The notes under the pieces are model-generated. The model was not told the origin of the DNA. It worked only from the letters and a program-made list of their open reading frames with translations, and did not search any database. Shown here in pieces: positions 21,460-37,770 of a stretch of 41,874 nt of DNA. A program made the position numbers and the translations under genes. This stretch comes from a virus. The stretch's first letter is position 1, and every line of letters begins with the position of its first letter. The stretch lies in the IMG/VR virus record IMGVR_UViG_3300009285_000025, one strand, 5' to 3'.

Positions 21460-22146
21460 TTAGTAATCTACTCCTAACTGAAAATCATAGGGCGATTCCC
21501 ACCGAGAATTACCGTTACGTAAATTCCTCGCCATTCCCCTTATATGCTCAATATGTGGAGACACCCTACTTGCCAATTTACTGCCCACAACTCCTTGACG
21601 CCATCTCTTCTGCGGAAACAATTTTGCCATACATAAATAACGCAACGCATCACACAAATGGTCGTCCACTTTTCTTATCTTTTCTCTCTGCCTATCATCC
21701 TTTACAACGCCCCTTACGTCCCTACGTCTATAATTTCTCATCTGGCGGAGTAGTTTATCATTCCCCTCACCATCAGACAAAATAAGAAGCTGTGGATTAT
21801 TCCACTCAAGACCTACGGGTTTATCCTTATCAATACGCATTAAAGACGAAACATAATTATTCCCCGCATCTACCGAGTTGTCACCATCTATACAATAAAT
21901 ACCATTTGCAATATATTCTAATTTTACCTGACTTCCTGGGTCTATAACATAGGTTGGAAGCACACCATCGATTGCCTGATAAGATAAAAATTCCTTCGAG
22001 TGTTCAGCTACAATCTTATTCTCCGCTAAATAAGAACGATAAACAATCATATTCCCATAAAAATCCACTGCTCCCCAAACCGCAGCAGTAAAATACCCCG
22101 TATCGATAGCAACCCCATATTCCCATTCTGGATTTAGCACTATCAC
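21460..22146 (-). CDS. terL: Terminase large subunit, C-terminal nuclease domain, as a separate ORF (228 aa).
   Basis: It has RNaseH-like nuclease motifs VAIDTGYFTAAVWGAVD and DDHLCDALRYL. The GTG start at 22146 overlaps the upstream TGA (ATGTGA) and lies 5 nt after AAGGAGGAGGTG. Confidence 0.8.
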   Translation of the reverse strand: MIVLNPEWEYGVAIDTGYFTAAVWGAVDFYGNMIVYRSYLAENKIVAEHSKEFLSYQAIDGVLPTYVIDPGSQVKLEYIANGIYCIDGDNSVDAGNNYVSSLMRIDKDKPVGLEWNNPQLLILSDGEGNDKLLRQMRNYRRRDVRGVVKDDRQREKIRKVDDHLCDALRYLCMAKLFPQKRWRQGVVGSKLASRVSPHIEHIRGMARNLRNGNSRWESPYDFQLGVDY

Positions 22147-22997
22147 ATCGCCACCTCCTCCTTTGCTATCTGGTAAAACTCATCTACCTTTTTAGAGGAA
22201 ATTAAAATATTGTCAAGTTCTTGATATATAATCTTACTTCGTGTCGCATACTTGCCGTAAATTCTCGCCTGAATCTCATCATCACCCAATGTCCGCATAA
22301 ACCTTTTAATCTGCACATCCGTAAGTAGTGGATTATCCCATATCTCTGGACTGAATATCTGAGAATCAGTATCAAATTCTACTGTCCCCTGCTTATCCCA
22401 TATATCCGTATATGTCCAGTCCATCCCTTCAATCGGAACAATCGTCATCCACAGACACCCATCCGTTGCAACAAGGCGAGCAACTATTTCCGTAAATATA
22501 TCTCTTGGACATTCCTCATCAACCCAAGCCCAATCAATATTCGCACCCGCAAATGCCTCCCTGCCGCTCTCTGCCGACTTGAATCGGACAATACAGCCAT
22601 CTGTAGTATGTAATGTCCTATACCTTTTCTCATAAGAAGCAATTTTATCTTTAGGAAAGAAATCAAAAAAGCGTCTCTGGGCGACTTCTAATCCTTTAGA
22701 GAAATCAGTAGAAACAACCCACCCCTCATTAGGCATACGGATATTCTTGCGATACGGATGAGTACCAAGAGAAAACCGTCCACCTTCAACAGCTGCCCCT
22801 GTGGTTTTGCCTACCTTATTAGAACCAATTACATATCTAAACGGCTTCTGACACTGATGAAACGCTTTTGCCCATTCAAACGGCTCGTAAAAATCTATTC
22901 CCCTTGCATCTTTACGGCTTTTCAGTTCCGTCAGAAGTTCCGTTATCTCCTGAAGTTGCGGATTCCTTTTCGCCTTTTGCATCAGCATTCTCCACAA
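22143..22997 (-). CDS. terL: Terminase large subunit, N-terminal ATPase domain, as a separate ORF (284 aa).
   Basis: It has Walker A GSNKVGKT, Walker B IDWAWVDEE, a coupling motif TIVP and the domain-end motif RIYGKY. Confidence 0.85.
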   Translation of the reverse strand: MWRMLMQKAKRNPQLQEITELLTELKSRKDARGIDFYEPFEWAKAFHQCQKPFRYVIGSNKVGKTTGAAVEGGRFSLGTHPYRKNIRMPNEGWVVSTDFSKGLEVAQRRFFDFFPKDKIASYEKRYRTLHTTDGCIVRFKSAESGREAFAGANIDWAWVDEECPRDIFTEIVARLVATDGCLWMTIVPIEGMDWTYTDIWDKQGTVEFDTDSQIFSPEIWDNPLLTDVQIKRFMRTLGDDEIQARIYGKYATRSKIIYQELDNILISSKKVDEFYQIAKEEVAM

Positions 22998-23502
22998 TTA
23001 CCTCCACGCTCTTTACAATATCCCTACCCTGATTCATAATGCTACTCAGTATCGCAGGGTCAAATTTACGGAGACGAGATAAAAGCTCATCATCTGTCAG
23101 ATTTGATATAATCGTATTGTTAGTTACATTTATATTTCTCGGAACTTGCACTCGTGATGCCATTATCTTACCCTCACGAAGCAGCGCCTCTGCCGCCTTC
23201 CTTTGCTCATCTGGCTCGCCATTCTCCATTATATACTCCAGCTTTTTTATGGCGTTGGGCATTGCCGATTGAAGCTCTATGGGAATTCCCCTGTCTAATG
23301 TGGCCTTAAATTGGGGGTCATTACCACACCAATAATAATATGCACCACGAGTTACATTAGCCGCCTCGATTGCCTTCTGCACGGTAGAGCCACCCAAAAT
23401 CGCAGTAGCAACAATTCTCTTTCTCTCATCCGTCCAATCCTCAATAGGTATTATCTCATTCAACGGCAATGAATTAACTCCGCCTATCCTACCTGTCATC
23501 AA
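22912..23502 (-). CDS. terS: Terminase small subunit candidate (196 aa).
   Basis: It lies directly upstream of terL and overlaps it. It has an HTH-like segment GGSTVQKAIEAANVTRGAYYYW. Confidence 0.55.
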   Translation of the reverse strand: MMTGRIGGVNSLPLNEIIPIEDWTDERKRIVATAILGGSTVQKAIEAANVTRGAYYYWCGNDPQFKATLDRGIPIELQSAMPNAIKKLEYIMENGEPDEQRKAAEALLREGKIMASRVQVPRNINVTNNTIISNLTDDELLSRLRKFDPAILSSIMNQGRDIVKSVEVIVENADAKGEKESATSGDNGTSDGTEKP

Positions 23503-23518
23503 TTACCCCCTCCCTTGC

Positions 23519-23887
23519 CTATCTTGGAACCCCACGTCTGTTTTTTATATGATAAAGAACATTCACCGAATGATTGCCCGCAATATCGCTTCTTACCAAT
23601 AACCCTGTCCCTACGGGTAATTGCCATTCGGGTTCATCTACGAATGTCGTTTTAGCCAATATATAAAAATCATTACCAATTTGCACTCCTGACGTGTCAG
23701 TGAACCATATATTCCCTGCCACATTTGTCGATAGGGTAATTTTATCTACTACCACAATGCCCGTATTTGTTGCAACAGACGACGCTACGGCAACCCCCGT
23801 CGCCTCTGTCCCGCTTATCGCAGCCGTATAATCTTGGTCAAACGACAGAACCGTCCAACTCCTCCTCACATCACTTGATATTGTCAT
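23519..23887 (-). CDS. Hypothetical protein (122 aa).
   Basis: ORF track. It is the second gene of the late operon. Confidence 0.55.
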   Translation of the reverse strand: MTISSDVRRSWTVLSFDQDYTAAISGTEATGVAVASSVATNTGIVVVDKITLSTNVAGNIWFTDTSGVQIGNDFYILAKTTFVDEPEWQLPVGTGLLVRSDIAGNHSVNVLYHIKNRRGVPR

Positions 23888-24267
23888 ATTTTTACCTCAT
23901 CATTCCCTTTAATCAACTTAATGTTACCCTCTTCCTTTATCTCATCCCTTATAGCCATTAACGTATAGAGAACGGGAGCAACCATTGCCACCCTTTCACC
24001 CAACGGATTACTATCTACAATCTTTATCAATACATCTATCTCCTCATCAGTAAAGTCAATCTCACTAACATTATCTGCATTAAACTTTTCTCTGATTTTT
24101 ACTACCTTTTCCATACCCCCCTGAACTCTCGACATATCTATCTGCATCTTCAAAAACTCAAAAATTGTTATATCCTTGCCATCGCTCACCCTCGTTACCT
24201 TTTTATCCTGTATCCTCAACACGTCATTAGATAGTATCATTTTTCCATTCTCCATTTTCCTTATCAA
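23884..24267 (-). CDS. Hypothetical protein, first gene of the late operon (start ambiguous: 24267 TTG, 24255 ATG or 24240 ATG).
   Basis: ORF track. The ATG at 24240 has the best SD (GGAG 9-10 nt upstream). Confidence 0.5.
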   Translation of the reverse strand: MIRKMENGKMILSNDVLRIQDKKVTRVSDGKDITIFEFLKMQIDMSRVQGGMEKVVKIREKFNADNVSEIDFTDEEIDVLIKIVDSNPLGERVAMVAPVLYTLMAIRDEIKEEGNIKLIKGNDEVKI

Positions 24268-24342
24268 CTAAAATTCTTATTCTTATGCTCCACCTTTTCA
24301 GGCAAGCTCTTAAAAAAGGATGTGCCATTCTCCACAGTTCGC

Positions 24343-24370
24343 CTATCGACATCAGAACTATAAATCTTTA
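24343..24370 (-). promoter_or_regulatory. Sigma-28 (FliA)-like promoter candidate for the late operon.
   Basis: The minus strand reads TAAAGATT-N12-GTCGATAG. The enterobacterial FliA consensus is TAAAGTTT-N11-GCCGATAA. The site lies about 75-100 nt upstream of the first late gene. Confidence 0.4.
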
Positions 24371-24413
24371 ACAAAGTATGTGAAACTATTTTTAATTATT
24401 TATACGATTTTTG

Positions 24414-24442
24414 TTGACATAACTATAAACAGGCAGTATTAT
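24414..24442 (+). promoter_or_regulatory. Sigma-70-type early promoter.
   Basis: TTGACA (24414..24419), a 17-nt spacer, then TATTAT (24437..24442). Confidence 0.6.
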
Positions 24443-24449
24443 TCCTTTT

Positions 24450-24562
24450 ATGAAAACGCTTTATGAAAAGAATAATTAAAATTGCAGGGGGTAGGGCTAC
24501 ATCTCTCGCTATGTCGAAAGGCACGGCGGGGCGTTTTCATCCTACCCTCTGCTGTTTTTTTT
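24450..24562 (+). promoter_or_regulatory. Leader RNA element E1: interleaved helices A/A' and B/B' ending in a U-tract (terminator/attenuator).
   Basis: A 24450..24459 (atgaaaacgc) pairs with A' 24531..24540 (gcgttttcat). B 24484..24495 (gcagggggtagg) pairs with B' 24541..24552 (cctaccctctgc), 12 bp with one G-U. A T8 run follows at 24555..24562. Confidence 0.6.
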
Positions 24563-24583
24563 ATAGAGGGGGGGGCAAGTAAT

Positions 24584-25846
24584 ATGGTAGGCATAACGGC
24601 AAGGCAAAAACTTTTAGACGGGGATAATTTTATCGGGAACTATATCAGATATGCGAGCCAAAAAACCAGCGCAAAGGGTGTCTATCATTTAGCGATGGCA
24701 AAGTTATCCATAGCTACAATTCTCAATCATAATGTATATGTTGATGTAGGGACTCGGATATATCCGAACTTATGGATTTTGTTACTCGGCGCCTCTCGGA
24801 ATACGATGAAGACAACATCCTTAAACATAATGCGATATATTACTAATCGTATTCATAGACCTTGCACACCATACGAGCGGGACAAAGGGTTGTGCGATAT
24901 AAATGATGTAGGGTTCTGCACTAAATCGCACACGTTCTCGGCGCCAGCGTCATTTAGTTATGAAAAGATATTAGATGTATTGGCGGGAAGACCTTCGGCT
25001 TTATTTACATACAGCGAATTCAAATCGCTGATGGCAATGATTAACAATAATTATAATACAGAGCTTATGTCGTTTTTGACGGATATGTTTGACTGCCCGC
25101 CGATAATGGACAGAAGCACCCAAAAGGGCGAATTTGTCATAAAAGAACCGTATATCAATATAGGCGGATGTTCAACGATAGTATGGTTCACAGATTCTAT
25201 AAAAGAAGAGCATATCTCAGGCGGATTCCTCGCACGATTTATGTTTGTAATCGTAACCGAAAAGGTGCATAAGAAGAGCATCCACGACCTGACCAGTCCT
25301 TCCCAAAATGAAGAAAATAAGGTTGTTCACCAGCTCGAGGCAATTAAAGAGTTCGCTAAAACTGCCGGGCAGATGAGATTTTCTAAAGAAGCCGAACTCC
25401 TCCACCGCAAGTTTGAATTAGAGACGTTTGACAATACGCCGCCGATATTGGATGCCGTGATAGACCAGTATTGCACCTCTTGTATCAAGCTGGCTATCAT
25501 TTACGCCGCTAACGGGTTACGAGAGGAAATTTCTGCTGACGATATGGAGAATGCGATTAACGATACAAAAAGCGGTATCGTTGATTTATGCTCATTATTC
25601 TCTACGGGTAAAATTCAATTTACCGATTACGGCAAGAAATCACAAAAGATAGTCGAACTCATAGAACGTAAGGGCGGTAAGCTCTCAAGACGGGAACTCT
25701 TGCAATCATCCAATCTAAAGCTACAAGAATTTACACCTATCATAGATACTCTAATCCAAAGTGGCAGAATAGCACAGGTGCAGGACGGCAAACGTGGAGC
25801 ATATTCCTATACCCTTATGGAGAAATCATTATGCGAAAAGAGTTAG
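24584..25846 (+). CDS. DUF3987-like replication protein (helicase/initiator-like) with a C-terminal winged-helix (420 aa).
   Basis: RIYPNLWILLLGASRNTMKTTS, INIGGCSTIVWF and GGFLARFMFV fit my recollection of the DUF3987 pattern. The C-terminal ELIERKGGKLSRRELLQSS...GRIAQVQDGKRGAYSY looks like a wHTH. The start was trimmed from the track TTG at 24482 to the ATG at 24584, which follows GAGGGGGG. Confidence 0.55.
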   Translation: MVGITARQKLLDGDNFIGNYIRYASQKTSAKGVYHLAMAKLSIATILNHNVYVDVGTRIYPNLWILLLGASRNTMKTTSLNIMRYITNRIHRPCTPYERDKGLCDINDVGFCTKSHTFSAPASFSYEKILDVLAGRPSALFTYSEFKSLMAMINNNYNTELMSFLTDMFDCPPIMDRSTQKGEFVIKEPYINIGGCSTIVWFTDSIKEEHISGGFLARFMFVIVTEKVHKKSIHDLTSPSQNEENKVVHQLEAIKEFAKTAGQMRFSKEAELLHRKFELETFDNTPPILDAVIDQYCTSCIKLAIIYAANGLREEISADDMENAINDTKSGIVDLCSLFSTGKIQFTDYGKKSQKIVELIERKGGKLSRRELLQSSNLKLQEFTPIIDTLIQSGRIAQVQDGKRGAYSYTLMEKSLCEKS

Positions 25847-26187
25847 AAGAATTACAAGGGTTATTCGCCAAATACGAACTATACGACTACTTTGATATGG
25901 TATCCCGCTGGCTCGCCGATACAGACCTATACTCAAGCGATATTGCTCAATTTCTCGGCACCGGTAAATCCCAACTCTTGAAAGAAATAAGAAGTATGGT
26001 TACTAATAACCTCTTCAAAGTCCTCATCAGCGATACTATGCTTAATTCCGTTAAATCCCTTCAAGATATTGATAACCTTCGCTTCTGCCTGAATTACGAT
26101 AGTCGCTCCTGGCACCGTATCGCTCAGGCATTAAAAACCGCTAATTCTTATCAAAATACGCTATCCCGCTCCTTCTGTAGTATGTAG
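25831..26187 (+). CDS. Hypothetical 118-aa protein with a possible HTH segment.
   Basis: ORF track, with GGAG upstream. The segment SDIAQFLGTGKSQLLKEIR is HTH-like. The 3' end already contains two TGTAGTA repeats. Confidence 0.55.
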   Translation: MRKELEELQGLFAKYELYDYFDMVSRWLADTDLYSSDIAQFLGTGKSQLLKEIRSMVTNNLFKVLISDTMLNSVKSLQDIDNLRFCLNYDSRSWHRIAQALKTANSYQNTLSRSFCSM

Positions 26188-26391
26188 TAACTACCCCCCT
26201 ACCTATACCATAAAACCCTTAAATTTCAATAATTTAATAATTTATATACTACTACTACTACTACTAACTACACTACTACTTATACTATAACTATATATAT
26301 GATAGATACTTATGCGTAGTTTTACACATTACTACACTCCTTATGTAGTTACTACTTATACCCCTTATGTAGTAATGTAGTAAGTGTAGTA
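26176..26391. repeat. Iteron-like arrays: TGTAGTA repeats facing a (TAC)n/TACTAC array around an AT-rich core.
   Basis: TGTAGTA occurs at 26176, 26183, 26368, 26376 and 26385, with variants at 26344 and others. (TAC)5 at 26247..26261 continues as taactacactactac. TACTACA occurs at 26330. CCTTATGTAGT is present twice (26339, 26363). The core reads ctatatatatgatagat. Confidence 0.7.
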
Positions 26392-26818
26392 ACTTTAATT
26401 TTGCAAATTTCACAGATTCAGACCTGCAAACTCTGGCTATCTATCCTAAATACCGCCCCCCTTTATTCTAATCACTTTTCAAAATCTTAGGCACAGATGC
26501 AGAAGAGAGGGGGTATTGTCCCAATGACGCCACCCCCATAGGTAACCCTGTATGGTGTTACAGCGTTACAGTTATGCGGTATTAACATATATGGTAGTGT
26601 AGGTAGGTAGAAGTAGATAGGTGATGTTTCTTTACTGCCTATACGTTGGGGTTATATAGGGGCAAGGTAAGTAAAGAATGGCATAAAGGTAACTTCTCAT
26701 ATGGCATATAGGCAAGATTGCATACCTCGAGGTGTTTATCTCTACCTCTCTATCAACCGCCGTCCCTGTCTTTAGTGCGTTAGTTACTGCATTAAATACT
26801 ATCAAGGTCAAGGTATGA

Positions 26819-26840
26819 TATGTTGATAATATGTTGATAA
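26819..26840. repeat. 11-bp tandem repeat tatgttgataa x2, plus a partial third copy.
   Basis: Read directly: tatgttgataa tatgttgataa aatgtttaac. Confidence 0.8.
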
Positions 26841-26913
26841 AATGTTTAACTATCAAGTAATCACTGTTGCCCCCTGCCTATTCGCTATTTGCCTACGTTT
26901 GCATTATGCCTAT

Positions 26914-26933
26914 ATCCCTATCTATCCCTATCA
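26914..26933. repeat. 10-bp tandem repeat atccctatc(t/a) x2.
   Basis: Read directly. Confidence 0.8.
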
Positions 26934-27110
26934 CCTCATAATAACTATTGACATTTACGCCACTGCGTGGAGTTGCTCTACATTCAGCGACAGGGTCTCA
27001 AGTGTAGAATTACTTCCCTTTATCCATAGTTTGCGTCTGGCGGGTATCTACAAGCAATGTTAATTTCACGAATTTAAGGGTATGCCCTAAATCCTTGTAA
27101 ATTAAAGGGT

Positions 27111-27130
27111 ATAGGCAAATATAGGCAAAA
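27111..27130. repeat. 10-bp tandem repeat ataggcaaa(t/a) x2.
   Basis: Read directly. It shares the ATAGGCA core with five other dispersed copies in the region. Confidence 0.8.
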
Positions 27131-27200
27131 TCCTTGCATTATCAATAGATTAAAAGACATCACTACTTGGCAGTTGATGTATCATTCCTTGAAAAAGATT

Positions 27201-27250
27201 TTGCCTCTCACTTGCCTCTCACTTGCCTCTCACTTGCCTCTCACTTGCCT
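27201..27250. repeat. Perfect 11-bp tandem repeat ttgcctctcac x4.5.
   Basis: Copies lie at 27201, 27212, 27223 and 27234, with a partial copy at 27245..27250. TTGCCT is the reverse complement of the AGGCAA core at 27111..27130. Confidence 0.9.
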
Positions 27251-27750
27251 ATGCTTTGTCTCTATACTGCGTGCGGTCTGGTTGAAGTATCCTTCTTTTA
27301 TACCACTAATGGTATAAAATGTGTCAGGCAGTATTACTATTACTACCTATGGTATGAGTTAAGTATTTTTGCGTATTAGTTAAGTGAGATAGGGTAAGAG
27401 GGGACAGAGTTGTATAGTAGGTATGCAGTTTGGGTTCGGGTAATTTTTACAATTACTTTTTTTTGAGGTTTATAGAAGGTTCTACAGGTTTGGCAGTTAC
27501 AATCTTTTTGGTATGGATAAGACATATTGATATATTAGTATTTAGTTTTAATTTTGTCAAGTTAGCAGGTAAAAATAAATTCCCCTATATTATGGTTTTC
27601 TATACTACATATAGATAAAAACAATTCGTGTGTTCATACTAATAGTATATGGTATCTATATATTGTGTGATTAAAATTATATTATACTATATATGGTAGT
27701 TTTGTCAGTCAAACTATTTTAACTATTTTTACGAATTATGCAAATTATAT

Positions 27751-27778
27751 TTGTAATATCGCCGAGATGTGATATAGT
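27751..27778 (+). promoter_or_regulatory. Sigma-70-type promoter candidate with an extended -10.
   Basis: TTGTAA (27751..27756), a 16-nt spacer ending in TGA, then TATAGT (27773..27778). Confidence 0.4.
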
Positions 27779-27794
27779 CCTTATAGATTTAATA

Positions 27795-27906
27795 TGATAC
27801 GCATAGGAAGAATAATAATAAAGAGTAGAGCGGGAACGGGCATTTCTGTTCGTGGATGTATGTCTGCGGATACTATGCGTATCAACCGTCCCCGCTCTTA
27901 TTTTTT
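27795..27906 (+). promoter_or_regulatory. Leader RNA element E2, with the same interleaved A-B-A'-B'-U-tract architecture as E1.
   Basis: A 27795..27806 (tgatacgcatag) pairs perfectly with A' 27873..27884 (ctatgcgtatca). B 27827..27839 (agagcgggaacgg) pairs with B' 27886..27898 (ccgtccccgctct) with one mismatch. The sequence ttattttttat follows. Confidence 0.6.
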
Positions 27907-27919
27907 ATGGAGGTAGGCT

Positions 27920-28174
27920 ATGGAGTATATTACTAACTGCGTTTCGGGGAATGCTGAAGACCTTCAAAAGATGGTTGATTCTGCAAAGAGTATTACATAT
28001 AGAACCTTTACTAAATATGTAAAACCCTTCGTATTAAATGAGCTGTTCCCACAGTATGTAAAGGGCATACTGCATATAAAGGATGACTATTCAGTAAGTT
28101 TCTTCAAGGGTCGGTATCAGGGCAGACATTGTGTCTATGTTGAGCAAAGCGGGATAGAGTATATTTTTTGTTAG
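27920..28174 (+). CDS. Hypothetical 84-aa protein.
   Basis: ORF track, with GGAGG 7 nt upstream. It is the first gene after E2. Confidence 0.6.
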   Translation: MEYITNCVSGNAEDLQKMVDSAKSITYRTFTKYVKPFVLNELFPQYVKGILHIKDDYSVSFFKGRYQGRHCVYVEQSGIEYIFC

Positions 28175-28187
28175 AAAGGGGAATGAT

Positions 28188-28418
28188 ATGGTAAAGGTAA
28201 AATATGGTAAGAGGGAGCTTATACAGGCAGTGTTCGACAGCAAGAGCAAAGCTATAAGACGGGCGAAGTTCGTCAAGGGTTATGTAGTTATAGTCAAAAG
28301 TAATGGTAAATTTTATGTCGAAACGTCGCTTCCGTTGATAAGGGATTTTGAGCAAATAGTTTATAGGCGAGATAGAAGAAAGGATATAGAATATGACAAT
28401 AGATTATTGCGAAGTTGA
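28188..28418 (+). CDS. Hypothetical 76-aa protein.
   Basis: ORF track, with a TTAGAAAGGGG RBS cassette upstream. Confidence 0.6.
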   Translation: MVKVKYGKRELIQAVFDSKSKAIRRAKFVKGYVVIVKSNGKFYVETSLPLIRDFEQIVYRRDRRKDIEYDNRLLRS

Positions 28419-28695
28419 AGGATGTTGTCAGCGGTCAGCGTTGCGGTGGATAGACCATTATATTTGCTGGGGGCATTGGCTACTTTATGCTAACAATAAA
28501 CTCGATTTAAGAAAGGAATTTAACTTACCTGCGATAGTTAGAAGTGATAACCTCACGGGTCAGGATGAGGGCTTGGCGGATAGCACGGGGATGGGTAACA
28601 TTGAGGCAGATAAAGAGGGTGGAAGCGACACTCTAACTTCGCCCTCCACTGCCTCTGTAAATTGGGTTGCAGTTAAAGAAACCTTACTATTTTAG
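28393..28695 (+). CDS. Hypothetical 100-aa protein with a Cys/His-rich N-terminus.
   Basis: ORF track, with AAAGGA upstream. It contains CEVEGCC...HYICWGHW. Confidence 0.5.
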   Translation: MTIDYCEVEGCCQRSALRWIDHYICWGHWLLYANNKLDLRKEFNLPAIVRSDNLTGQDEGLADSTGMGNIEADKEGGSDTLTSPSTASVNWVAVKETLLF

Positions 28696-28707
28696 AAAGG
28701 AGAATAT

Positions 28708-29211
28708 ATGGTAAATGAAGTTATAGACATTTTAGCGTTAGCGTTAAATGAAGCGACACCATTTGATAACTCGCAAAAACAGGGACTGATAGTAGCTGAC
28801 GAAAAGGACGCTACATATTTTTCAGGATTGCTTGCTATGTGGCAAAACGAGATAGAGCGGAGGAAGGAGCAATGCCGAGAATATGTCGCACACGCCGAGC
28901 GGACTTTAGAGCGATTGCAATATCTTTGCAGTAATCAATTAGAGGATTGGACAGCAAAGGAATTGACAACCGTAAAAGGTAAAAGCATTAAGTTAGCAAG
29001 TGCTACAATAGGATTTAGGACGCAGAAAGATAAGTTAGTTATAACCGATAAGGACACATATATTAAATGGTGTGATGATAACAAGGTGGCGGGCTATGTA
29101 GTAGAGACCCGCACAATCATAACCCCTGCTAATGAGTATTATGAGAAGGAGGGCAAAGTGCCTGATGGTGTAAATGTTGAGAAGGGTTTTGAGAAATTTT
29201 ATGTCAAATAG
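28708..29211 (+). CDS. gam: Mu Gam-like / Gp157-like host-nuclease inhibitor (167 aa).
   Basis: An N-terminal coiled coil is followed by KGKSIKLASATIGFRTQKDKLVITD and a C-terminal VPDGVNVEKGFEKFYV, as in Mu Gam. It lies directly upstream of recT. Confidence 0.5.
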   Translation: MVNEVIDILALALNEATPFDNSQKQGLIVADEKDATYFSGLLAMWQNEIERRKEQCREYVAHAERTLERLQYLCSNQLEDWTAKELTTVKGKSIKLASATIGFRTQKDKLVITDKDTYIKWCDDNKVAGYVVETRTIITPANEYYEKEGKVPDGVNVEKGFEKFYVK

Positions 29212-29225
29212 AGAAAGGAGATAAT

Positions 29226-30281
29226 ATGACAAATGAAGTAGCAGTTCAAAATGAATGGACAGCCGAACAGATTAACTTAATCAAGTCAATGGTATGCAAA
29301 GGCGCTACTGATGACGAGTTTAAGCTGTTTTTATACTTCGGCAAAAAAACGGGGCTTGACCCACTGGCAAAGCAATATCATTTTGTAAAAAGGTGGAATA
29401 ATCAAACGCAGAAGGAAGAGGGGACGATACAGACGGGTATAGACGGACTTCGGCTGGTCGCTGAACGGACAAATAAATATGCGGGTAGTAGTGAACCGAT
29501 TTATGTTATAGACGAGAAAACACACCTGCCTATTTCGGCAACCGTAAAAGTTAGAAAGTTATTAGCAGGAACTGTTCACGAAGTGGGAGCTATTGCATTT
29601 TTTAGTGAGTATGTTCAAAAGAAAAAGGACGGAACGGCTATGTTTCTTTGGGCTAAAATGCCATTCCTAATGATAGGAAAATGTGCAGAGGCGCTTGCAC
29701 TACGCAAGGCATTCCCCGATGACTTGTCCAGCATATATGCAGACGAAGAAATGCAACAAGCAGATTCGATTAAAAATGTGGAAGCAGAGATAGTAGATAA
29801 AACGACTATGCCAAAGATTGACCAGATAAAAAATATGACATCTCCTGCTCCCGCAACTACTTCTATTGACGAGAAGCTATATGATAATGTGGCAGTATAT
29901 ATCAAAGGATTATCAATAAAAGAAGCGGATGACTTTAAGGATTGGATTATGCGAAAATTCAAGATAGGATTGCCTATGCTTGAAAATAACCAGCTACAAC
30001 TTGTTACTCAAGAGATAGAAAGGCGAGAGTTAGCTGTGGGTAAGCCATCCGAAGACGCTGATGATGTAGAGCCAAAAGATATGATACCTCTATCAGCAGG
30101 GCAGGCACAATCCTTGCACAAGCAGGCGAGCAGAAAGGGATTGCCTAATGCCGAATTATGTATAATGTTAGGGCTTGACAGCGAAGTTCAGCATCTAACG
30201 GGTATGCCTGTAAGCAAGACAAAACATAAAGAGACGCTTATAAAAATTGGAGCGATGGCTGATAAGAAGGAGGGGAAATAG
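29226..30281 (+). CDS. recT: RecT/Bet-family single-strand annealing protein (351 aa).
   Basis: Motifs LIKSMVCKGATDDEFKLFLYFGKKTGLDPLAKQYHFV, GIDGLRLVAERT and MIGKCAEALALRKAFPD match RecT/Bet. It sits between the gam-like gene and ssb. Confidence 0.85.
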   Translation: MTNEVAVQNEWTAEQINLIKSMVCKGATDDEFKLFLYFGKKTGLDPLAKQYHFVKRWNNQTQKEEGTIQTGIDGLRLVAERTNKYAGSSEPIYVIDEKTHLPISATVKVRKLLAGTVHEVGAIAFFSEYVQKKKDGTAMFLWAKMPFLMIGKCAEALALRKAFPDDLSSIYADEEMQQADSIKNVEAEIVDKTTMPKIDQIKNMTSPAPATTSIDEKLYDNVAVYIKGLSIKEADDFKDWIMRKFKIGLPMLENNQLQLVTQEIERRELAVGKPSEDADDVEPKDMIPLSAGQAQSLHKQASRKGLPNAELCIMLGLDSEVQHLTGMPVSKTKHKETLIKIGAMADKKEGK

Positions 30282-30284
30282 AAA

Positions 30285-30659
30285 ATGAGTGATATAAATG
30301 TAGTGTTACTTACAGGTAATTTGACTAAAGACCCTGAATTAAAATATACGCCAAGCGGTATGGCGGTATGCGATTACACTATCGCCGTGAATGGCTACAA
30401 AAAGGATAAGGCAGAGGGCGAGAAAGACCCCGTGTCGTTTGTCGATTGTGTTAGTTTTAACAAGCAGGCAGAGGCAATATCGCAGTATCAAAAGAAGGGC
30501 AGTATGCTAACTGTAAGTGGGGAGTTAAAACAAGAGCGATGGGAAAAAGATGGGCAGAAACACAGTAGAATAAAAATTATGGTCAGTCGGGTTAAGTTTA
30601 GCCAAAAAAGTAAGGATACTAAAGTAGCTGATAAATCTGATAGTGCTATACCATTTTAG
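30285..30659 (+). CDS. ssb: Single-stranded DNA-binding protein (124 aa).
   Basis: The OB-fold N-terminus reads NVVLLTGNLTKDPELKYTPSGMAVCDYTIAVN. WEKDGQKHSRIKI is present, and the tail ends in the canonical DSAIPF. Confidence 0.85.
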   Translation: MSDINVVLLTGNLTKDPELKYTPSGMAVCDYTIAVNGYKKDKAEGEKDPVSFVDCVSFNKQAEAISQYQKKGSMLTVSGELKQERWEKDGQKHSRIKIMVSRVKFSQKSKDTKVADKSDSAIPF

Positions 30660-30668
30660 AGGATTAAA

Positions 30669-31025
30669 ATGACAAATAAAGTTATGCTTGAATGTTTAGA
30701 ATGCTACGCCAAGATGTATGAGGCGATAGATAAAGGCATTAGGGCTTTGGAGCAGGACAAGGCATTTGAGATAGACCTTCTGAAAAAGAGGAAGGCGTCA
30801 GGGCTCGTAAATTCTACCCCGGCGCCTTCTGATATTATAAATGCTAAAGTGATTACAAAATGTAAGATATGTGGGCATTTAGTTGATAATCACTATAAGC
30901 GGCCATCTGGCTCTATTTGGACTTATCGAGATGATAAGGGGAAAATACAATGCAGTTGTATAGAATGTGAGCAGTGGAATGAACTATATGGACGTGAGAG
31001 GGTTAGCTTTAGAAAGAAGGAATGA
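30669..31025 (+). CDS. Hypothetical 118-aa protein with a zinc-ribbon-like C-terminal half.
   Basis: ORF track, with CKICGH and CSCIEC. Confidence 0.5.
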   Translation: MTNKVMLECLECYAKMYEAIDKGIRALEQDKAFEIDLLKKRKASGLVNSTPAPSDIINAKVITKCKICGHLVDNHYKRPSGSIWTYRDDKGKIQCSCIECEQWNELYGRERVSFRKKE

Positions 31026-31112
31026 TTGTGAACGGAGAGGGCGGAGTCGTGCGTGATGACTGCGATTCGCCCTCTGATATTTTTAATTAGATTAGAAAGG
31101 AAGGTGATAAAA

Positions 31113-31349
31113 ATGAGTAATACAATTACTATTCTCGAAGATGAGCGAGAAATTGAAAGTGTTAGATTTTTCGATACAGGAGAAGGATATATTAAGGGTG
31201 AACTTGGAATAGAAAAAATAGAAGTATATTCAGAAGATGGAGTGTATTCTAAACTTCCCTTTATCGCAGTATGGAAAAGTGGCAATATACTTGTAAGGGT
31301 TTCAGCTTTATTTGTAACAATCAAATATAGGGAGGTAAAAGATGCGTAG
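31113..31349 (+). CDS. Hypothetical 78-aa protein.
   Basis: The track frame was trimmed to the ATG at 31113, which follows TTAGAAAGGAAGGTG. Confidence 0.5.
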   Translation: MSNTITILEDEREIESVRFFDTGEGYIKGELGIEKIEVYSEDGVYSKLPFIAVWKSGNILVRVSALFVTIKYREVKDA

Positions 31350-31551
31350 AGGAATTGACGCAATCGATAATGATGGGCTTAATTGCTGGAAGCATAACGG
31401 GAATTCTAATAGTCCGTATACACAGCCAATATTCTGCGATGATTGTCAAATGCTATATGATGATTGCCCTTGTGATGAGGAAGTATTTTCTGATGTCAAG
31501 GGTAAAAGTTTTGAGGAGATATTAAAAGATGAAGATAGGGTTAATAGATAG
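31342..31551 (+). CDS. Hypothetical 69-aa Cys-containing protein.
   Basis: ORF track, with GGGAGG upstream. It contains CDDCQMLYDDCPC. Confidence 0.5.
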   Translation: MRRGIDAIDNDGLNCWKHNGNSNSPYTQPIFCDDCQMLYDDCPCDEEVFSDVKGKSFEEILKDEDRVNR

Positions 31552-31717
31552 AACTGGAAGGATAATTTTAGAAGCAAATAATTTAGCTGATGTTAAAATA
31601 AAATTTAAGGAACAGTTTCATAAAGACAAAGATATTGATGAATTCGATAGTATATGGACATTGCTTCTTGAGAATAATAGGATATTGGAGGTGAAAGATG
31701 ATAAATGTAAATGTTGA
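31529..31717 (+). CDS. Hypothetical 62-aa protein.
   Basis: ORF track, with GAGGAG upstream. Confidence 0.5.
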   Translation: MKIGLIDRTGRIILEANNLADVKIKFKEQFHKDKDIDEFDSIWTLLLENNRILEVKDDKCKC

Positions 31718-31922
31718 TTTTAGTAAAGCAGTTTTTACGGACATCCGTGCTGATGAGTGGGAGTTAGATAGTATTTGCTTGCCTAACATTCTAATTCTAA
31801 AACGCACAAAGGATTTGCGGAATTTCAGCGGCCACAAAGGGTTGAGCGTTCCATTTGAGAATTTAGGGATGTTCTCTGTTCGTAATTTGTCTATTTACCC
31901 AAAATATAGGAAGGAGAAATAA
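31698..31922 (+). CDS. Small protein, paralogue A (74 aa) of 34748..34984.
   Basis: ORF track, with GGAGG upstream. It is roughly 60% identical by eye to the 78-aa product at 34748 (shared NVDFS.AVFTD..EWELD.ICLPNILILK...VPFEN.G.FS.RNLSI.P). Confidence 0.6.
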   Translation: MINVNVDFSKAVFTDIRADEWELDSICLPNILILKRTKDLRNFSGHKGLSVPFENLGMFSVRNLSIYPKYRKEK

Positions 31923-31925
31923 GAT

Positions 31926-32201
31926 ATGGAAAGTAAAATTTGTAGTATATGTCAAAAGCCGACAGTCGATTATCAGGAATTTGATAGAGGTAAAAAGGGG
32001 ATAGAGATAAGATGTTCAGGGTGTAGTGAGGGATTGGCGAAGCATTGGCGTAAGGGGCGCATATCAGGAAAGACATTCTTTAGAAAAAAGGGGGATAGCA
32101 AGACAAAGTCGGGTAAAGATAGGATAAAGAGGAATGCTCTGGGGTTCGATACCGCCAAATTTGATGACCCTACAAAAATTAATGATGAGGATTTTGTTTA
32201 A
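31926..32201 (+). CDS. Zinc-ribbon small protein (91 aa).
   Basis: ORF track, with CSICQK and CSGC followed by a basic tail. Confidence 0.5.
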   Translation: MESKICSICQKPTVDYQEFDRGKKGIEIRCSGCSEGLAKHWRKGRISGKTFFRKKGDSKTKSGKDRIKRNALGFDTAKFDDPTKINDEDFV

Positions 32202-32221
32202 TTAGAAAGGAGAGATAAGCT

Positions 32222-32626
32222 ATGAACGAACAGGAATTCTTTGATAAGATTAGACAGTTAGTTAATGAGACAAATCCTGAAGCGGTAGATATTCTTATCG
32301 AAGAATTGGACAAAGCGAAATGGACGCATCCTTCGTGGGACACAGCAGAGCTTGATTTTTTATGCCAAGCGAAAGTATTCGCAATGCAAAGCAATTCTAT
32401 TCTCGGGTTAGTATGGTGTGCGTGGTGTAAGAAATATCTACGGATAGAAACCGCATCTGAAGACCACGATAAGCTTGCATTGGTGAACGTCAGCGATGGA
32501 ATATGTGCGGTGTGCAAATCGAGAGAAATTGCAGAAGCAAGTAGCCATAGCAAAGAGCAAGGCCAAGTTAGCGGTGAAGGTGGGGATTTAATGTCCCCGC
32601 CTTCTAATCTTGAAGGTGAGTTATGA
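32222..32626 (+). CDS. Hypothetical 134-aa protein.
   Basis: ORF track, with TTAGAAAGGAG upstream. Confidence 0.55.
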   Translation: MNEQEFFDKIRQLVNETNPEAVDILIEELDKAKWTHPSWDTAELDFLCQAKVFAMQSNSILGLVWCAWCKKYLRIETASEDHDKLALVNVSDGICAVCKSREIAEASSHSKEQGQVSGEGGDLMSPPSNLEGEL

Positions 32627-32805
32627 GAGGCATAATAAAAAATCTGCTCGACAGAATAAACAATACACTATTCCAATTCTGGTATAGCGGTTGGCTACGA
32701 GCGAAAAGTAGAGGTGGCGAATGGATTGAAGGCAAATACTACTATGCGTTTAGAATTCAATGCGTAACTGCCCCGCTTTTCAGAAAGCTGAAAAAACTAC
32801 TATGA
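32623..32805 (+). CDS. Hypothetical 60-aa protein.
   Basis: ORF track. ATGA overlaps occur at both ends. Confidence 0.4.
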   Translation: MRGIIKNLLDRINNTLFQFWYSGWLRAKSRGGEWIEGKYYYAFRIQCVTAPLFRKLKKLL

Positions 32806-33233
32806 CACAAAAAAGGGATAGATTAAGAGATGACGCATTAGTATTCCTAAAGTATATGCAGAAACATCATATAGGTAAAGTCAATGCAATCAAAGAGCCA
32901 ACACTTGCAAGGGATTATTTCATTATAGAAGTTATGGGTATGAAGCCGGGCGGAGTTTTCCCGTCAAATACGAGCAATGCCTTAAAGGTATCGTTCCCAA
33001 ATCACTGTCGTAAAATTAGAGCATACTGTCAATACTTGCGAGAGAATGGAATTGCCTGTATAATGTTTGGAGATGAGGGACTGTATATTCCCGCTACTCT
33101 TGAGGAAGGTTGGAATGGACTAAAGCCAATGAGGTCAAAGGCAATGAGTATGATAGTGCAGTATAATAAGATGAAGCGAATGCTACGGCAGATATTTAAT
33201 CCTGATTTATTTATAGAGCAAAAGTTATTTTAG
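32802..33233 (+). CDS. Hypothetical 143-aa protein.
   Basis: The track frame was trimmed to the ATG at 32802, which forms an ATGA overlap with the upstream stop. Confidence 0.55.
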   Translation: MTQKRDRLRDDALVFLKYMQKHHIGKVNAIKEPTLARDYFIIEVMGMKPGGVFPSNTSNALKVSFPNHCRKIRAYCQYLRENGIACIMFGDEGLYIPATLEEGWNGLKPMRSKAMSMIVQYNKMKRMLRQIFNPDLFIEQKLF

Positions 33234-33247
33234 AAAGGAGAGTAAAA

Positions 33248-33490
33248 ATGAAGGCAATTTTTAACTGGCTATTAGAACACATTTATCCTGAAAGGGCTTA
33301 TAGAAGGGGGTATCGTGAAGGGTGCTTTGCTAAACAAGACGAACTGCTTACAATGGAGTTTCCAGCACTTATGATGAAGAGGGCGACATACCTTATGAAG
33401 CGTGAATGTGATAAAGCGTTATTTGGTAATATCTCTAACAACAATCATATTGCTGGCTTAAAAGAATTGGTAGATGATTGTAAAAAGTGA
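33248..33490 (+). CDS. Hypothetical 80-aa protein.
   Basis: ORF track, with TTAGAAAGGAG upstream. Confidence 0.55.
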   Translation: MKAIFNWLLEHIYPERAYRRGYREGCFAKQDELLTMEFPALMMKRATYLMKRECDKALFGNISNNNHIAGLKELVDDCKK

Positions 33491-33544
33491 GATATTTTAG
33501 ATGTGTATATTATTTATAAGTTGAATTAGAAAGGAAAATGTAAG

Positions 33545-34123
33545 ATGAATAAAATAAAAACAATTTTTGAAAGGGACTGGAATGGGAATAGAGCGTGTAT
33601 TGATAAATATGTCGAGGGATTTGACTCTTTACAATTAAATGAGGCGGTGGCTACGGAGAAATTAGATGGAACTAATATACGAGTTACTGTTAGAAACCAC
33701 ATTGTAGTTAGGATTGAAAAAAGAAAGAACCCAGATAGAATACAAAAACATAGAGGTATAGAAGAGCCGTGGTATATTGATGCTTCGGAGAGTGATTCTT
33801 CGGATAAGTGGATTTTTGACGCAGTTCAGAATACTAATTTATCTCAAATTCCCGATGGTGAATGGAGTGCGGAGGCAGTGGGTAAAAATATACAAGGCAA
33901 TCCGTTAAATCTTGACAAAAATATTGCAGTATTCTTTTCATTAGGGCAATGTCCTATATTTGAAGATGCACCGATTACATACGAGGCATTGAGAGAGTGG
34001 CTTCCAAGTCAAAAAAGTAAATATGGGAATAACTGTTTGATTGAAGGTATTGTGTGGCATTGCAAAAATGGGGAGATGTTTAAGATAAAGACGAAGGATT
34101 TTAAGGGTGATGGGAGGAGATGA
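33545..34123 (+). CDS. Minimal ATP-dependent RNA (or DNA) ligase-like nucleotidyltransferase (192 aa).
   Basis: It has covalent nucleotidyltransferase motif I ATEKLDGTN, motif IV EGIVWH and motif V FKIKTKDF. Its size fits a stand-alone adenylyltransferase domain. Confidence 0.6.
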   Translation: MNKIKTIFERDWNGNRACIDKYVEGFDSLQLNEAVATEKLDGTNIRVTVRNHIVVRIEKRKNPDRIQKHRGIEEPWYIDASESDSSDKWIFDAVQNTNLSQIPDGEWSAEAVGKNIQGNPLNLDKNIAVFFSLGQCPIFEDAPITYEALREWLPSQKSKYGNNCLIEGIVWHCKNGEMFKIKTKDFKGDGRR

Positions 34124-34230
34124 ATAATTTCTTTACTTGGCACTATTGGAAGCCCGCAGTGATTTATATTATCTTGGGTATGATAGGCATAGTGTTAGGT
34201 TACGGGATTGTATATTTAATTTTTAGATAG
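34120..34230 (+). CDS. 36-aa single-pass membrane peptide (not in the ORF track).
   Basis: The ATG forms an ATGA overlap with the ligase stop. It translates MNNFFTWHYWKPAVIYIILGMIGIVLGYGIVYLIFR. Confidence 0.4.
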   Translation: MNNFFTWHYWKPAVIYIILGMIGIVLGYGIVYLIFR

Positions 34231-34246
34231 AAAGGAGGGGTGGAAG

Positions 34247-34732
34247 GTGATAGAAATTAAAGCACCTAATGAAATGGGGGAAGGTAGCAAGTCAATATTT
34301 CTTGCTGGCAGTATCGAGATGGGCAATGCGGAGAAATGGCAAGATAAAGTAGTGTCCCTGATGCGTGATACTAATTGGACGATTCTAAACCCCAGAAGAG
34401 ATGACTGGGATTCGTCTTGGAGTCAGAGTATCAATAATAAAAGGTTCGTTGAGCAGGTAGAATGGGAATTGGCAGGATTGGAGAAAGCAAATATAATACT
34501 TATGTATTTTGATAAGAATACTGAGTCCCCTATTACACTGTTAGAATTAGGACTTCATGCTCGTTCTCATAAGTTAATTGTAGTATGCCCCGAAGGATTT
34601 TGGCGTAAAGGTAATGTAGATGTTGTATGCAATATGTATAATATCCTACAAGTATCTACTCTCGAAGAAGTAGTGAATAATCTCAAATGTGAGGAGTTCA
34701 TCTGCCCTTGCCCTATAGAAATTAAACTTTAA
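34247..34732 (+). CDS. Nucleoside 2-deoxyribosyltransferase-like protein (161 aa).
   Basis: IFLAGSIEMG, ILNPRRDDWDSSW, VEWELAGLEKANIILMYF and SPITLLELGLHA fit the Nuc_deoxyri_tr2-type pattern. The GTG start lies 8 nt after GGAGG. Confidence 0.5.
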   Translation: MIEIKAPNEMGEGSKSIFLAGSIEMGNAEKWQDKVVSLMRDTNWTILNPRRDDWDSSWSQSINNKRFVEQVEWELAGLEKANIILMYFDKNTESPITLLELGLHARSHKLIVVCPEGFWRKGNVDVVCNMYNILQVSTLEEVVNNLKCEEFICPCPIEIKL

Positions 34733-34747
34733 GAAAGGAGAAATGAT

Positions 34748-34984
34748 ATGGTAGATGTGAACATTGATTTTAGTAACGCAGTTTTTACGGACACGCAGGA
34801 TAATGAGTGGGAGTTAGATGAGATTTGCTTACCTAACATCTTAATTCTAAAACACGCAGAAGGTCGGTATAATCACAGCGACCACGAAAGGTTGCACGTT
34901 CCGTTTGAAAATATAGGGATATTCTCTATTAGGAATTTATCTATTTGTCCAAATGAAAAAGGGGAGGTGAAAGATGGGAATTAA
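34748..34984 (+). CDS. Small protein, paralogue B (78 aa) of 31698..31922.
   Basis: ORF track, with AAAGGAG upstream. See paralogue A. Confidence 0.6.
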   Translation: MVDVNIDFSNAVFTDTQDNEWELDEICLPNILILKHAEGRYNHSDHERLHVPFENIGIFSIRNLSICPNEKGEVKDGN

Positions 34985-35267
34985 ATGTAAAGAGTGTAAT
35001 CAACTGATACCCCTATCTTATGCACAGAATGTTGCAGATAAATTAGAAAGTTTAGAAATAGCATTACACAGCAAGTTTGCGTCTCCTATACAATATATGG
35101 TTGTTGATGATAATGTTTATAAGCGGCTTTATAGGGATATAATTACTACAGGTGCTGATAACGTTTATGAATGCACTGTCCCTGCTGATTACGTTTTACG
35201 CTTGCGAGGCGCTGTTATATACTCAGATAAAATGTGGGATAGTTTAAGAGGGGGGATAAAAAGATGA
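34974..35267 (+). CDS. Hypothetical 97-aa protein.
   Basis: ORF track, with GGGGAGG upstream. It has an N-terminal CKEC. Confidence 0.55.
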   Translation: MGIKCKECNQLIPLSYAQNVADKLESLEIALHSKFASPIQYMVVDDNVYKRLYRDIITTGADNVYECTVPADYVLRLRGAVIYSDKMWDSLRGGIKR

Positions 35268-35434
35268 GTGGGAAATGTAAATCTCATAAATTTGCACTAC
35301 AGAGTAAATTGTTAATAAATGGTATAAAAATACCTTATTCCGAGAAGTGCGTAGAATGTGAAGAGAATATAGATATTGAGGTTAAATTATTGTGTAATGA
35401 TATGGTGCAAATTAAATGTGCTTACTCTATTTAA
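35264..35434 (+). CDS. 56-aa Cys-containing small protein (not in the ORF track).
   Basis: The start forms an ATGA overlap with the upstream stop. It translates MSGKCKSHKFALQSKLLINGIKIPYSEKCVECEENIDIEVKLLCNDMVQIKCAYSI. Confidence 0.4.
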   Translation: MSGKCKSHKFALQSKLLINGIKIPYSEKCVECEENIDIEVKLLCNDMVQIKCAYSI

Positions 35435-35443
35435 AGGTGAAAG

Positions 35444-35833: not shown

Positions 35834-35856
35834 AAAGGAAGGGGGTGATATAGATT

Positions 35857-35943
35857 ATGTCATTTGTTGTATGTGCGATGATTGGGTTTTTTGTAGGATT
35901 TGTTGTTGGATTAACTATTTCTAAAAATAAGAAAGGAGCATAA
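35857..35943 (+). CDS. 28-aa membrane peptide (not in the ORF track).
   Basis: The ATG follows GAAAGGAAGGGGG. It translates MSFVVCAMIGFFVGFVVGLTISKNKKGA and lies immediately upstream of the SPFH gene. Confidence 0.35.
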   Translation: MSFVVCAMIGFFVGFVVGLTISKNKKGA

Positions 35944-35944
35944 T

Positions 35945-36868: not shown

Positions 36869-36876
36869 GGTGAAAG

Positions 36877-37508: not shown

Positions 37509-37512
37509 GAGT

Positions 37513-37698: not shown

Positions 37699-37770
37699 GA
37701 ATATGGACATAGAGAATAAGATACTGTGCGGGTCTGCATTAGAAACTCTCAAGTATTGAAGGAAAATACA

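Follow-up and report, generated by a model that had tools for sequence, protein, structure and literature searches.

Three interleaved leader RNAs at the heads of rightward units in an orphan phage: candidate transcription attenuators with non-overlapping helices

The IMG/VR virus record IMGVR_UViG_3300009285_000025 holds a DNA stretch of 41,874 nucleotides (nt), here called the window, which looks like a whole phage genome of about 42 kb. Three rightward transcription units in this window open with RNA structures of the same plan, designated E1 (24450-24562), E2 (27795-27906) and E3 (39525-39623). In each, four strands follow one another in the order A-B-A'-B', and a U-tract comes next. The A/A' and B/B' helices are therefore interleaved, and A' ends 0-1 nt ahead of B'. 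E1, its paralog E2 and the analogous E3 are best read as cis-acting leader RNAs that attenuate transcription at the heads of the rightward (early) units, and we assign this reading a probability of about 0.45. B/B' and the U-tract would form an intrinsic terminator, which A/A' would oppose from within the terminator loop.

The architecture is real and beyond chance. Both strands were scanned for a T-run preceded by a B/B' helix with 8 or more pairs and a loop no longer than 70 nt. A gap of 0-2 nt was allowed between A' and B', and A' had to form 9 or more Watson-Crick pairs with a segment upstream of B. Exactly three sites emerge, namely E1, E2 and E3, all on the + strand, whereas 150 dinucleotide shuffles give a mean of 0.07 sites and a maximum of one. 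The folding energy of each element also beats that of all 200 of its own shuffled versions (z = -4.7 to -6.4). A first-pass annotation of E1, made from the letters of the DNA, had described its coordinates, promoter, interleaved helices, 0-1 nt abutment and U-tract, as well as recurrence at three rightward heads, and all of these hold.

In all three elements only 9-21 nt separate the U-tract from a start codon, and each precedes the first gene of a rightward unit. E1 lies ahead of a DUF3987 primase/helicase gene (24584-25846, + strand), and E2 ahead of an operon of about 11 kb that encodes Gam, RecT, SSB, an RNA ligase, a deoxyribosyltransferase and other proteins. E3 is divergent from a phage sigma-factor gene and is followed by an HNH endonuclease gene. 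The short gap leaves no space for a second promoter, so the primase gene, the 11-kb operon and the HNH gene need read-through. This need is the main argument for regarding the elements as regulatory attenuators rather than as ordinary terminators or stand-alone genes for small RNAs (sRNAs). A search of the + strand for strong hairpins followed by T-runs returned just E1, E2 and E3, plus one weak A/U-rich intragenic structure. The terminator-like signals of this strand are found at the heads of rightward units, not at their ends.

All three elements have the stem and U-tract of an intrinsic terminator, with the two 0-2 nt apart and a tract of at least 5-6 U residues. The stem of E1 comprises 12-13 base pairs (bp) followed by UG and U8, that of E2 has 12 of 13 pairs followed by U6, and that of E3 has 10 bp followed by U6. 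The corresponding hairpin energies are -37.6, -33.9 and -14.8 kcal/mol. The loops depart from the typical 3-8 nt, since they measure 43, 46 and 18 nt, and an inner hairpin takes up most of the loop in E1 and E2. A simple terminator scan that allowed loops of 3-8 nt picked up none of the three.

E1 has a promoter of the form TTGACA-17-TATTAT (24414-24442, + strand), which agrees with the consensus at 11 of 12 positions and is the joint best within the scanned region 22000-41874. Start sites, here and below, were placed from promoter consensus only. The E1 transcript would start at A24450, so that strand A (ATGAAAACGC / AUGAAAACGC; 24450-24459) would lie at its 5' end. Strand A' (GCGTTTTCAT / GCGUUUUCAU; 24531-24540) is located within the terminator loop, flush with B'. 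These strands form 10 perfect pairs, and three more G.U pairs could lengthen the helix to 24462/24528. B (24484-24495) and B' (24541-24552) are the 5' and 3' sides of the terminator stem and make 12 pairs, including one G.U. A possible 13th pair, also G.U, would extend B to 24496 and take 24540. The A-rich linker between A and B (24460-24483) carries AAGAAUAAU at 24468-24476 and can pair with the U-tract in the minimum free energy (MFE) fold. The inner hairpin (24503-24533) overlaps the first 3 nt of A' at its base. Beyond B' come TG, the U-tract (T8, 24555-24562), and the start region of the primase/helicase gene (24565-24586), with a Shine-Dalgarno sequence (SD; AGAGGGGGGGG, 24565-24575) and an ATG at 24584. 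The direct repeat TTTATGAAAA (24447-24456 and 24460-24469) and the 9-mer AAGAATAAT common to E1 and E2, both pointed out at first pass, are present. The linker also includes AATAAT (24471-24476) and TAAAAT (24477-24482), at about +22 to +33; in so A/T-rich a linker, these -10-like hexamers are weak evidence for a sigma-70-dependent promoter-proximal pause element.

The strands of E2 are A (UGAUACGCAUAG; 27795-27806; inverted repeat I12), B (27827-27839), A' (27873-27884) and B' (27886-27898), all on the + strand. A and A' form 12 perfect pairs with a 1-nt spacer to B', and a single A.C mismatch in B/B' leaves 12 of 13 possible pairs. Positions 27875-27878 of A' have an alternative local pairing with 27840-27843. 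The U-tract (T6, 27901-27906) is followed by an SD, GGAGG, and an ATG at 27920. E3, likewise on the + strand, consists of A (GGUAUCCAGCUA; 39525-39536), a hairpin in the linker (39545-39579), B (39580-39589), A' (39596-39607), and B' with the U-tract (39608-39623; B' at 39608-39617, T6 at 39616-39621). Its A/A' helix has 12 perfect pairs and no spacer to B', its B/B' helix has 10 pairs, and A' fills 12 of the 18 loop nucleotides. The HNH endonuclease gene starts with the ATG at 39631. The expectation that the transcript opens with A stands for E1, where promoter geometry supports it. It does not carry over to the other two elements. The best sigma-70-like promoter of E2, TTGTAA-16-(TG)TATAGT (27751-27778, + strand), would start transcription near 27785, about 10 nt upstream of A, and the best -10 box of E3, TATATT (39518-39523), would put a candidate start site inside A.

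Local alignment shows that E1 and E2 are diverged paralogs, that is, duplicates. The alignment has a score of 56 (shuffle mean 23, maximum 44; z = 8.1) and spans the region from an AT-rich motif 5' of the -35 box through the leader to the SD. The shared 9-mer is explained by this paralogy. The helix sequences, first described as unrelated, are thus related between E1 and E2, and the description survives for E3. E3 has no similarity to E1 or E2 that can be detected by alignment or covariance model, and is an independent or unrecognizable copy.

Relatives retrieved from metagenomes by exact-protein look-ups are near-identical to the window and present in many copies. E2 and E3 are invariant in every relative fetched, so ortholog covariation is impossible for these elements. 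A single locus, L001, differs, and it does so solely in E1. Its promoter is TTGACA-17-TATTGT, its distance to the ATG is unchanged, so that the transcript would again open with A, and it has a hairpin of other sequence at the position of the inner hairpin. B/B' retains 12 of 12 pairs in L001 through four substitutions, which include one two-sided compensatory change and two G.U/Watson-Crick exchanges. A/A' shows one compensatory change from A-U to G-C, one improvement from G.U to G-C, and two disruptions.

When E1, its L001 counterpart and E2 are aligned with MAFFT, standard pairs occupy 93.8% of the cells. Seven pairs are altered on both sides (two in A/A', five in B/B'), a number reached by none of 500 shuffles. 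Control helices whose partners were slid by 1-3 columns show 0-1 two-sided changes and 38-48% pairing. The covariation check proposed at first pass thus finds both helices kept through compensatory changes. Three sequences make for modest evidence, but the evidence favors both helices. The presence of G.U pairs suggests that the conserved molecule is RNA of the + strand and argues against a signal at the DNA level.

The nested MFE structure of E1 and E2 is a long hairpin composed of the B/B' lower stem, an internal loop and the inner hairpin, with A' on the 3' side of the internal loop. In MFE folds of the growing chain, A/A' appears in all three elements once A' is out. After B' is out, B/B' replaces it, and the predicted energy changes from -26.4 to -41.2 kcal/mol in E1 and from -29.9 to -38.3 kcal/mol in E2. 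The A/A' and B/B' folds of E3 are level (-31.6 versus -30.7 kcal/mol).

The two helices overlap by 0-1 nt, with 24540 alone shareable through the optional 13th G.U pair of E1. They share essentially no nucleotides and so need not be mutually exclusive. A' does overlap the inner or middle stem of the extended terminator hairpin, by 3 nt in E1, which is marginal, and by 4 bp in E2. The order A-B-A'-B' is that of an H-type pseudoknot in all three elements, with covariation in both helices. To bridge 10-12 bp, the tether between B and A' offers 6 nt in E3; in E1 and E2 it offers about 8 nt together with a hairpin. The linker from A to B measures 20-43 nt. A rough estimate, which adds the A/A' duplex energy to that of the B/B' fold with a penalty, puts a pseudoknot holding both helices below either nested fold. 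The original alternative, a pseudoknot or mutually exclusive helices, is still the right one to pose: nested folds exclude one another, with A/A' predicted first, and the pseudoknot is estimated to lie lowest.

If A/A' is forced to form in silico, B' is released and pairs with the SD that follows it in E1 (24541-24575) and E2 (27886-27914), but not in E3. On average, the probability that an SD nucleotide is unpaired drops from 0.48 to 0.18 in E1; the corresponding values for E2 are 0.72 and 0.28. A role for B' as an anti-SD strand was considered and judged incidental.

These features suggest the following mechanism. A host-type promoter would start the transcript, and about 100 nt on, the B/B' hairpin and U-tract would halt RNA polymerase 9-21 nt ahead of the first gene. 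The 5'-proximal strand A would pair with A' in the terminator loop, and this pairing would end right at the start of B'. Because A' is transcribed ahead of B', the A/A' helix would form first. It would convert a flexible loop into a rigid 10-12-bp duplex that abuts B' where RNA emerges from the exit channel. Since the tether between B and A' is short, B would need to reach back along this duplex and enter the exit channel beside it. A/A' would then slow or block the docking of B onto B' during the pause at the U-tract, and polymerase would read through. Such antitermination would operate via the loop and steric hindrance, without competition for stem nucleotides. An occupant of strand A would free the terminator, and could be a ribosome on the 5' AUG of E1 or E2, or a protein or RNA bound to the A-rich linker. 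After release or read-through, both helices may coexist as a stacked pseudoknot.

A ribosome on the leader AUG is a concrete candidate for the trigger. Strand A of E1 opens a 9-codon open reading frame (ORF; 24450-24479), whose AUG would be leaderless if transcription starts at its first nucleotide. The AUG, length and stop codon are kept in L001, where the peptide is METPYGKNN* rather than MKTLYEKNN*. E1, L001 and E2 all have an AUG where strand A begins, even though the nucleotide opposite its A differs (U, A and A, respectively). E3 has no start codon in or near strand A, which weakens the ribosome as a general trigger. Longer ORFs also cross the leaders, one of 39 codons in E1 (24463-24582) and one of 40 codons that opens at ATG 27794 and runs across E2 to 27916. 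The possibility that these are genes for small proteins of 39-40 amino acids was rejected on account of indels that change the reading frame in L001; agreement between the peptides is limited to about the first 6 residues.

Among known systems, the phage element works most like a transcription attenuator, yet it lacks the overlap that defines the classical kind. Classical attenuators and riboswitch platforms such as the trp leader, T-box and ZTP RNAs likewise place a terminator in a promoter-proximal leader, just before the gene, and have an alternative helix whose formation precedes that of the terminator. Their antiterminators, however, are built in part from nucleotides of the 5' side of the terminator stem. 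The phage A' strand is instead a loop strand that abuts the 3' side of the stem, with 0-1 nt between A' and B'. The suggestion that A/A' might be a classical antiterminator therefore fails, since it does not compete for the terminator stem. Rfam searches recognized no sensing domain or aptamer. Across the whole window they returned nothing at gathering score and, under permissive settings, only chance-level matches, in line with the first-pass remark that the fold was not recognized as a known RNA family. The best Rfam match at any element, ctRNA_pT181 on E3, was discarded as chance level (24.6 bits against a gathering score of 56; E = 1.5).

Two precedents, 'tug-of-war' antitermination and the pyrG leader discussed below, make the proposed mechanism plausible. 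Non-overlapping structures directly 5' of terminators can suppress termination provided that the spacer is short (bioRxiv 10.64898/2026.06.17.733018), and Bushhouse, Fu and Lucks (2026) attribute this 'tug-of-war' effect to steric competition at the RNA exit channel (bioRxiv 10.64898/2026.06.17.733018). The phage element resembles that system in having a stable structure flush with the terminator and no overlap with it, and the 0-1 nt abutment of A' and B' fits the spacer requirement. However, the 'tug-of-war' competitor is a ligand-binding aptamer upstream of the whole hairpin. In the phage element the competitor is A/A', a long-range pairing of the 5' region with the loop; it encloses B, fills the loop and implies no ligand. 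No upstream aptamer is recognized in the phage element, which is not a member of this group, but by analogy it may function in a similar way.

Other comparisons concern the layout of phage and bacterial leaders. As at lambda pR'-tR' (6S RNA), which is governed by Q, a promoter-proximal terminator opens a phage operon, and as with the HK022 put RNAs, a cis-acting structured RNA comes just after the promoter. In this group, too, one device is repeated at several operon heads. Neither a Q-like protein nor a put-like double stem-loop was detected in the window. Q acts through DNA and sigma-dependent pausing, and put RNAs act on downstream terminators and are not interleaved with one. The analogy with lambda pR'-tR'/Q that was drawn at first pass thus captures the layout only. 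None of 41 ORFs compared with Pfam and PHROGs is recognizable as a Q- or N-like antiterminator protein. The scan leaves room for a novel antitermination factor, as many small ORFs have no match at all.

In Bacillus subtilis pyrG, the transcript acquires extra 5'-terminal G residues that reportedly respond to the level of CTP by pairing with the 5' side of the terminator stem. These pseudo-templated residues prevent attenuation at a promoter-proximal terminator (Meng, Turnbough and Switzer 2004, cited through PMC4448216). The pyrG leader is similar in that its very 5' end provides the upstream antiterminator strand and its terminator is promoter-proximal. It differs in that its strand is made of pseudo-templated G residues, whereas phage strand A is templated and pairs in the loop. 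The HMP-PP (thiS) riboswitch (PMC6478431) likewise places its regulatory fold within a terminator hairpin whose completion depends on a pseudoknot or alternative pairing. There, however, the alternative fold binds a ligand and breaks up the base of the stem, and the riboswitch is conserved and widespread; the phage element leaves the stem untouched and is confined to one phage lineage.

Several observations weigh against the attenuator reading. Two of the L001 substitutions weaken A/A', the covariation comes from just three sequences, and E2 and E3 do not vary among the relatives fetched. The A/A' and B/B' helices could simply be present together in a pseudoknot that leaves termination unhindered. 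Were A/A' always the first to form, the terminator would serve no purpose without a trigger, and no trigger was identified: there is no recognizable Q- or N-like protein, and E3 has no leader AUG. Transcription of E3 may in addition begin inside strand A. Finally, a simple upstream hairpin barely affected strong terminators in the 'tug-of-war' study (bioRxiv 10.64898/2026.06.17.733018).

The elements might instead serve mainly to encode short RNAs, about 100-115 nt long, that are pseudoknotted and stable and arise by efficient termination, with leaky read-through supplying the mRNAs. A/A' would then stack on B/B' and shelter the 5' end, and the (AAN)n linker and U-tail would suit an Hfq-type chaperone or pairing in trans. 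We consider this somewhat unlikely. Each element does combine, in this order, a promoter, a compact structured RNA and a hairpin that ends in a U-tract, and the linkers carry triplet runs of the AAG-AAU-AAU type. The pseudoknot with both helices, moreover, is estimated to be more stable than either nested fold, and the short tether between B and A' fits a compact, stacked form of it. However, the essential genes downstream have no other promoter, so termination cannot dominate, and three RNAs that are alike in architecture but not in sequence favor a function in cis. Alternatively, the structures could be not terminators but 5' untranslated region (UTR) elements for stability or processing. 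A paired 5' end and a long irregular hairpin would shield the early mRNAs from 5'-end-dependent decay or provide an RNase III site, with the U-tract serving as a translation-enhancing A/U-rich region before the SD. The predicted 5'-terminal nucleotide of E1 is paired, B/B' and the inner hairpin of E1 and E2 together make a two-stem hairpin of about 25 bp with an internal loop, and an SD and start codon lie directly downstream. This account is nevertheless improbable. A plain 5' hairpin would suffice for protection, the threefold placement of A' in the loop and flush with B' would go unexplained, a GC-rich stem with U6-U8 0-2 nt past it is the signature of an intrinsic terminator, and the B/B' helix of E3 has just 10 bp.

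A variant of attenuation itself, slightly less probable still, would make translation of the leader ORFs the signal, in the manner of pyrBI or of leader peptides. A ribosome on the 9-codon leaderless or 39-codon ORF of E1, or on the 40-codon ORF of E2, would mask A, B or the hairpin, and because the longer ORFs end 1-3 nt before the next start codon, translational coupling would be allowed. The retention of the AUG at the start of A despite its varying partner, the constant length and stop of the 9-codon ORF in L001, and the fact that ORFs of 37-40 codons stay open across the element in E1, L001 and E2 are all in its favor. Yet E3 offers no start codon, the leader AUGs have no preceding SD, the longer ORF shifts frame between the window and L001 and so encodes no conserved protein, and four of the five nucleotide changes in the 9-codon ORF alter the peptide. 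Least probable is that the elements are chance inverted repeats or DNA-level features, such as protein-binding repeats or single-stranded DNA hairpins near an origin. By our estimate a single 10-bp inverted repeat whose arms lie within 100 nt would be expected by chance a few times in 42 kb, and E2 adjoins iteron-like repeats. The full architecture is nonetheless found three times against a shuffle expectation of 0.07, always on the sense strand, 3' of promoters and followed by U-tracts. The G.U pairs and G.U/Watson-Crick exchanges work only in RNA of the + strand, and three different repeat sequences would require three proteins.

A more specific form of the attenuator reading can be put forward tentatively, although we lean against it. 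The elements may be natural, ligand-free 'loop-clamp' antiterminators, in which a 5' segment paired in the terminator loop vetoes closure by stiffening the loop and crowding the exit channel. Such a device would gate every rightward unit of this sigma-bearing orphan phage, and would be lifted by an occupant of the 5' end, such as a 70S ribosome on a leaderless AUG or an early phage protein, leading to early shut-off. If the attenuation mechanism as such holds, it would be a second natural way of controlling intrinsic termination without overlap, used in a phage program rather than in a riboswitch. It would also explain how transcription is metered from strong host-type promoters into replication and recombination genes without a recognizable antiterminator protein. 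As the three copies differ in sequence but have a common geometry, they constitute a natural mutational series for the effects of loop rigidity and of the 0-1 nt spacer. For the present, a single metagenomic phage lineage is the only one in which the motif was found, and this restricts the reach of the proposal.

The lineage is an orphan. Megablast against GenBank phage records and searches of IMG/VR by protein and DNA pattern found no close relatives, and tblastn with the primase, portal and sigma-factor genes gave at best about 23-34% identity. These databases thus supplied no nucleotide match and remote protein matches alone. Distant cousins with portal proteins 29-33% identical (loci L005-L008) or about 22% identical (MW202554) have no comparable element. 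A covariance model built from E1, its L001 counterpart and E2 recovered only its own members, and not E3, when run over the window and 11 other loci. These searches found no homolog beyond this phage lineage.

The left half of the genome is transcribed leftward and carries structural genes, including those for an SU10-type capsid protein and a portal, and the right half is transcribed rightward and carries the early genes. A search for tRNA and tmRNA genes found none.

The AT-rich motif 5' of the -35 boxes of E1 (24380-24407, + strand; direct repeat D2) and E2 (27708-27734, + strand) has the form GT(G/C)AAACTATTTT(T)AA(T/C)TATTT(A/T)TACGA and is conserved better than the remainder of the E1/E2 alignment. 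It also occurs just 5' of an unrelated strong TTGACA promoter in two metagenome loci, L021 (893-917) and L022. This position argues for a generic promoter element rather than a part of the RNA, probably an UP element of the host group. As a probe for more elements in metagenomes, the motif returned E2 itself and unrelated promoters.

The stretch of about 2 kb from the primase gene to E2 (25846-27920) is gene-poor and contains many short direct and inverted repeats (TACTAC runs; 20-nt arms at 26264 and 26587), together with promoter-like sites on both strands. Relative L009 differs in length by 128 bp in this stretch (gene starts at 13443 versus 13315 in L010). Five to six tandem 11-bp repeats (TTGCCTCTCAC) are located at 27190-27263, about 530 nt 5' of E2. 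Their iteron-like spacing of one helical turn may mark a replication origin.

Within 38436-39425, the sigma-factor gene (38769-39425, - strand) converges with the end of the long rightward operon across a 27-nt gap that holds no terminator. Read-through from the early operon would run antisense over the sigma gene as far as the E3 hairpin. Two HNH endonuclease genes and a DUF559 endonuclease-like gene surround the sigma gene (37726-38367, 39631-39984 and 40012-40491). The 117-amino-acid HNH protein encoded after E3 has exact matches on 26 contigs, compared with 56-58 for neighboring proteins. Its gene is often missed by gene callers, and the DNA is identical at the loci checked. A perfect hairpin of 12-14 bp followed by a T-run (40493-40524, - strand) lies between convergent genes and is the sole canonical short-loop terminator in that part of the genome. 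It probably also terminates the E3 unit.

The early operon includes an RLIG1-type RNA ligase gene (33545-34123) and a nucleoside 2-deoxyribosyltransferase-like gene (34247-34732). A near-consensus promoter, TTGGCA-17-TATAAT (34469-34497), is internal to the latter. The large terminase gene seems to be split at 21460-22997 into two adjacent overlapping ORFs (Terminase_6N, about 197 amino acids, and 228 amino acids), and the same split is called in relatives L002, L003 and L009.

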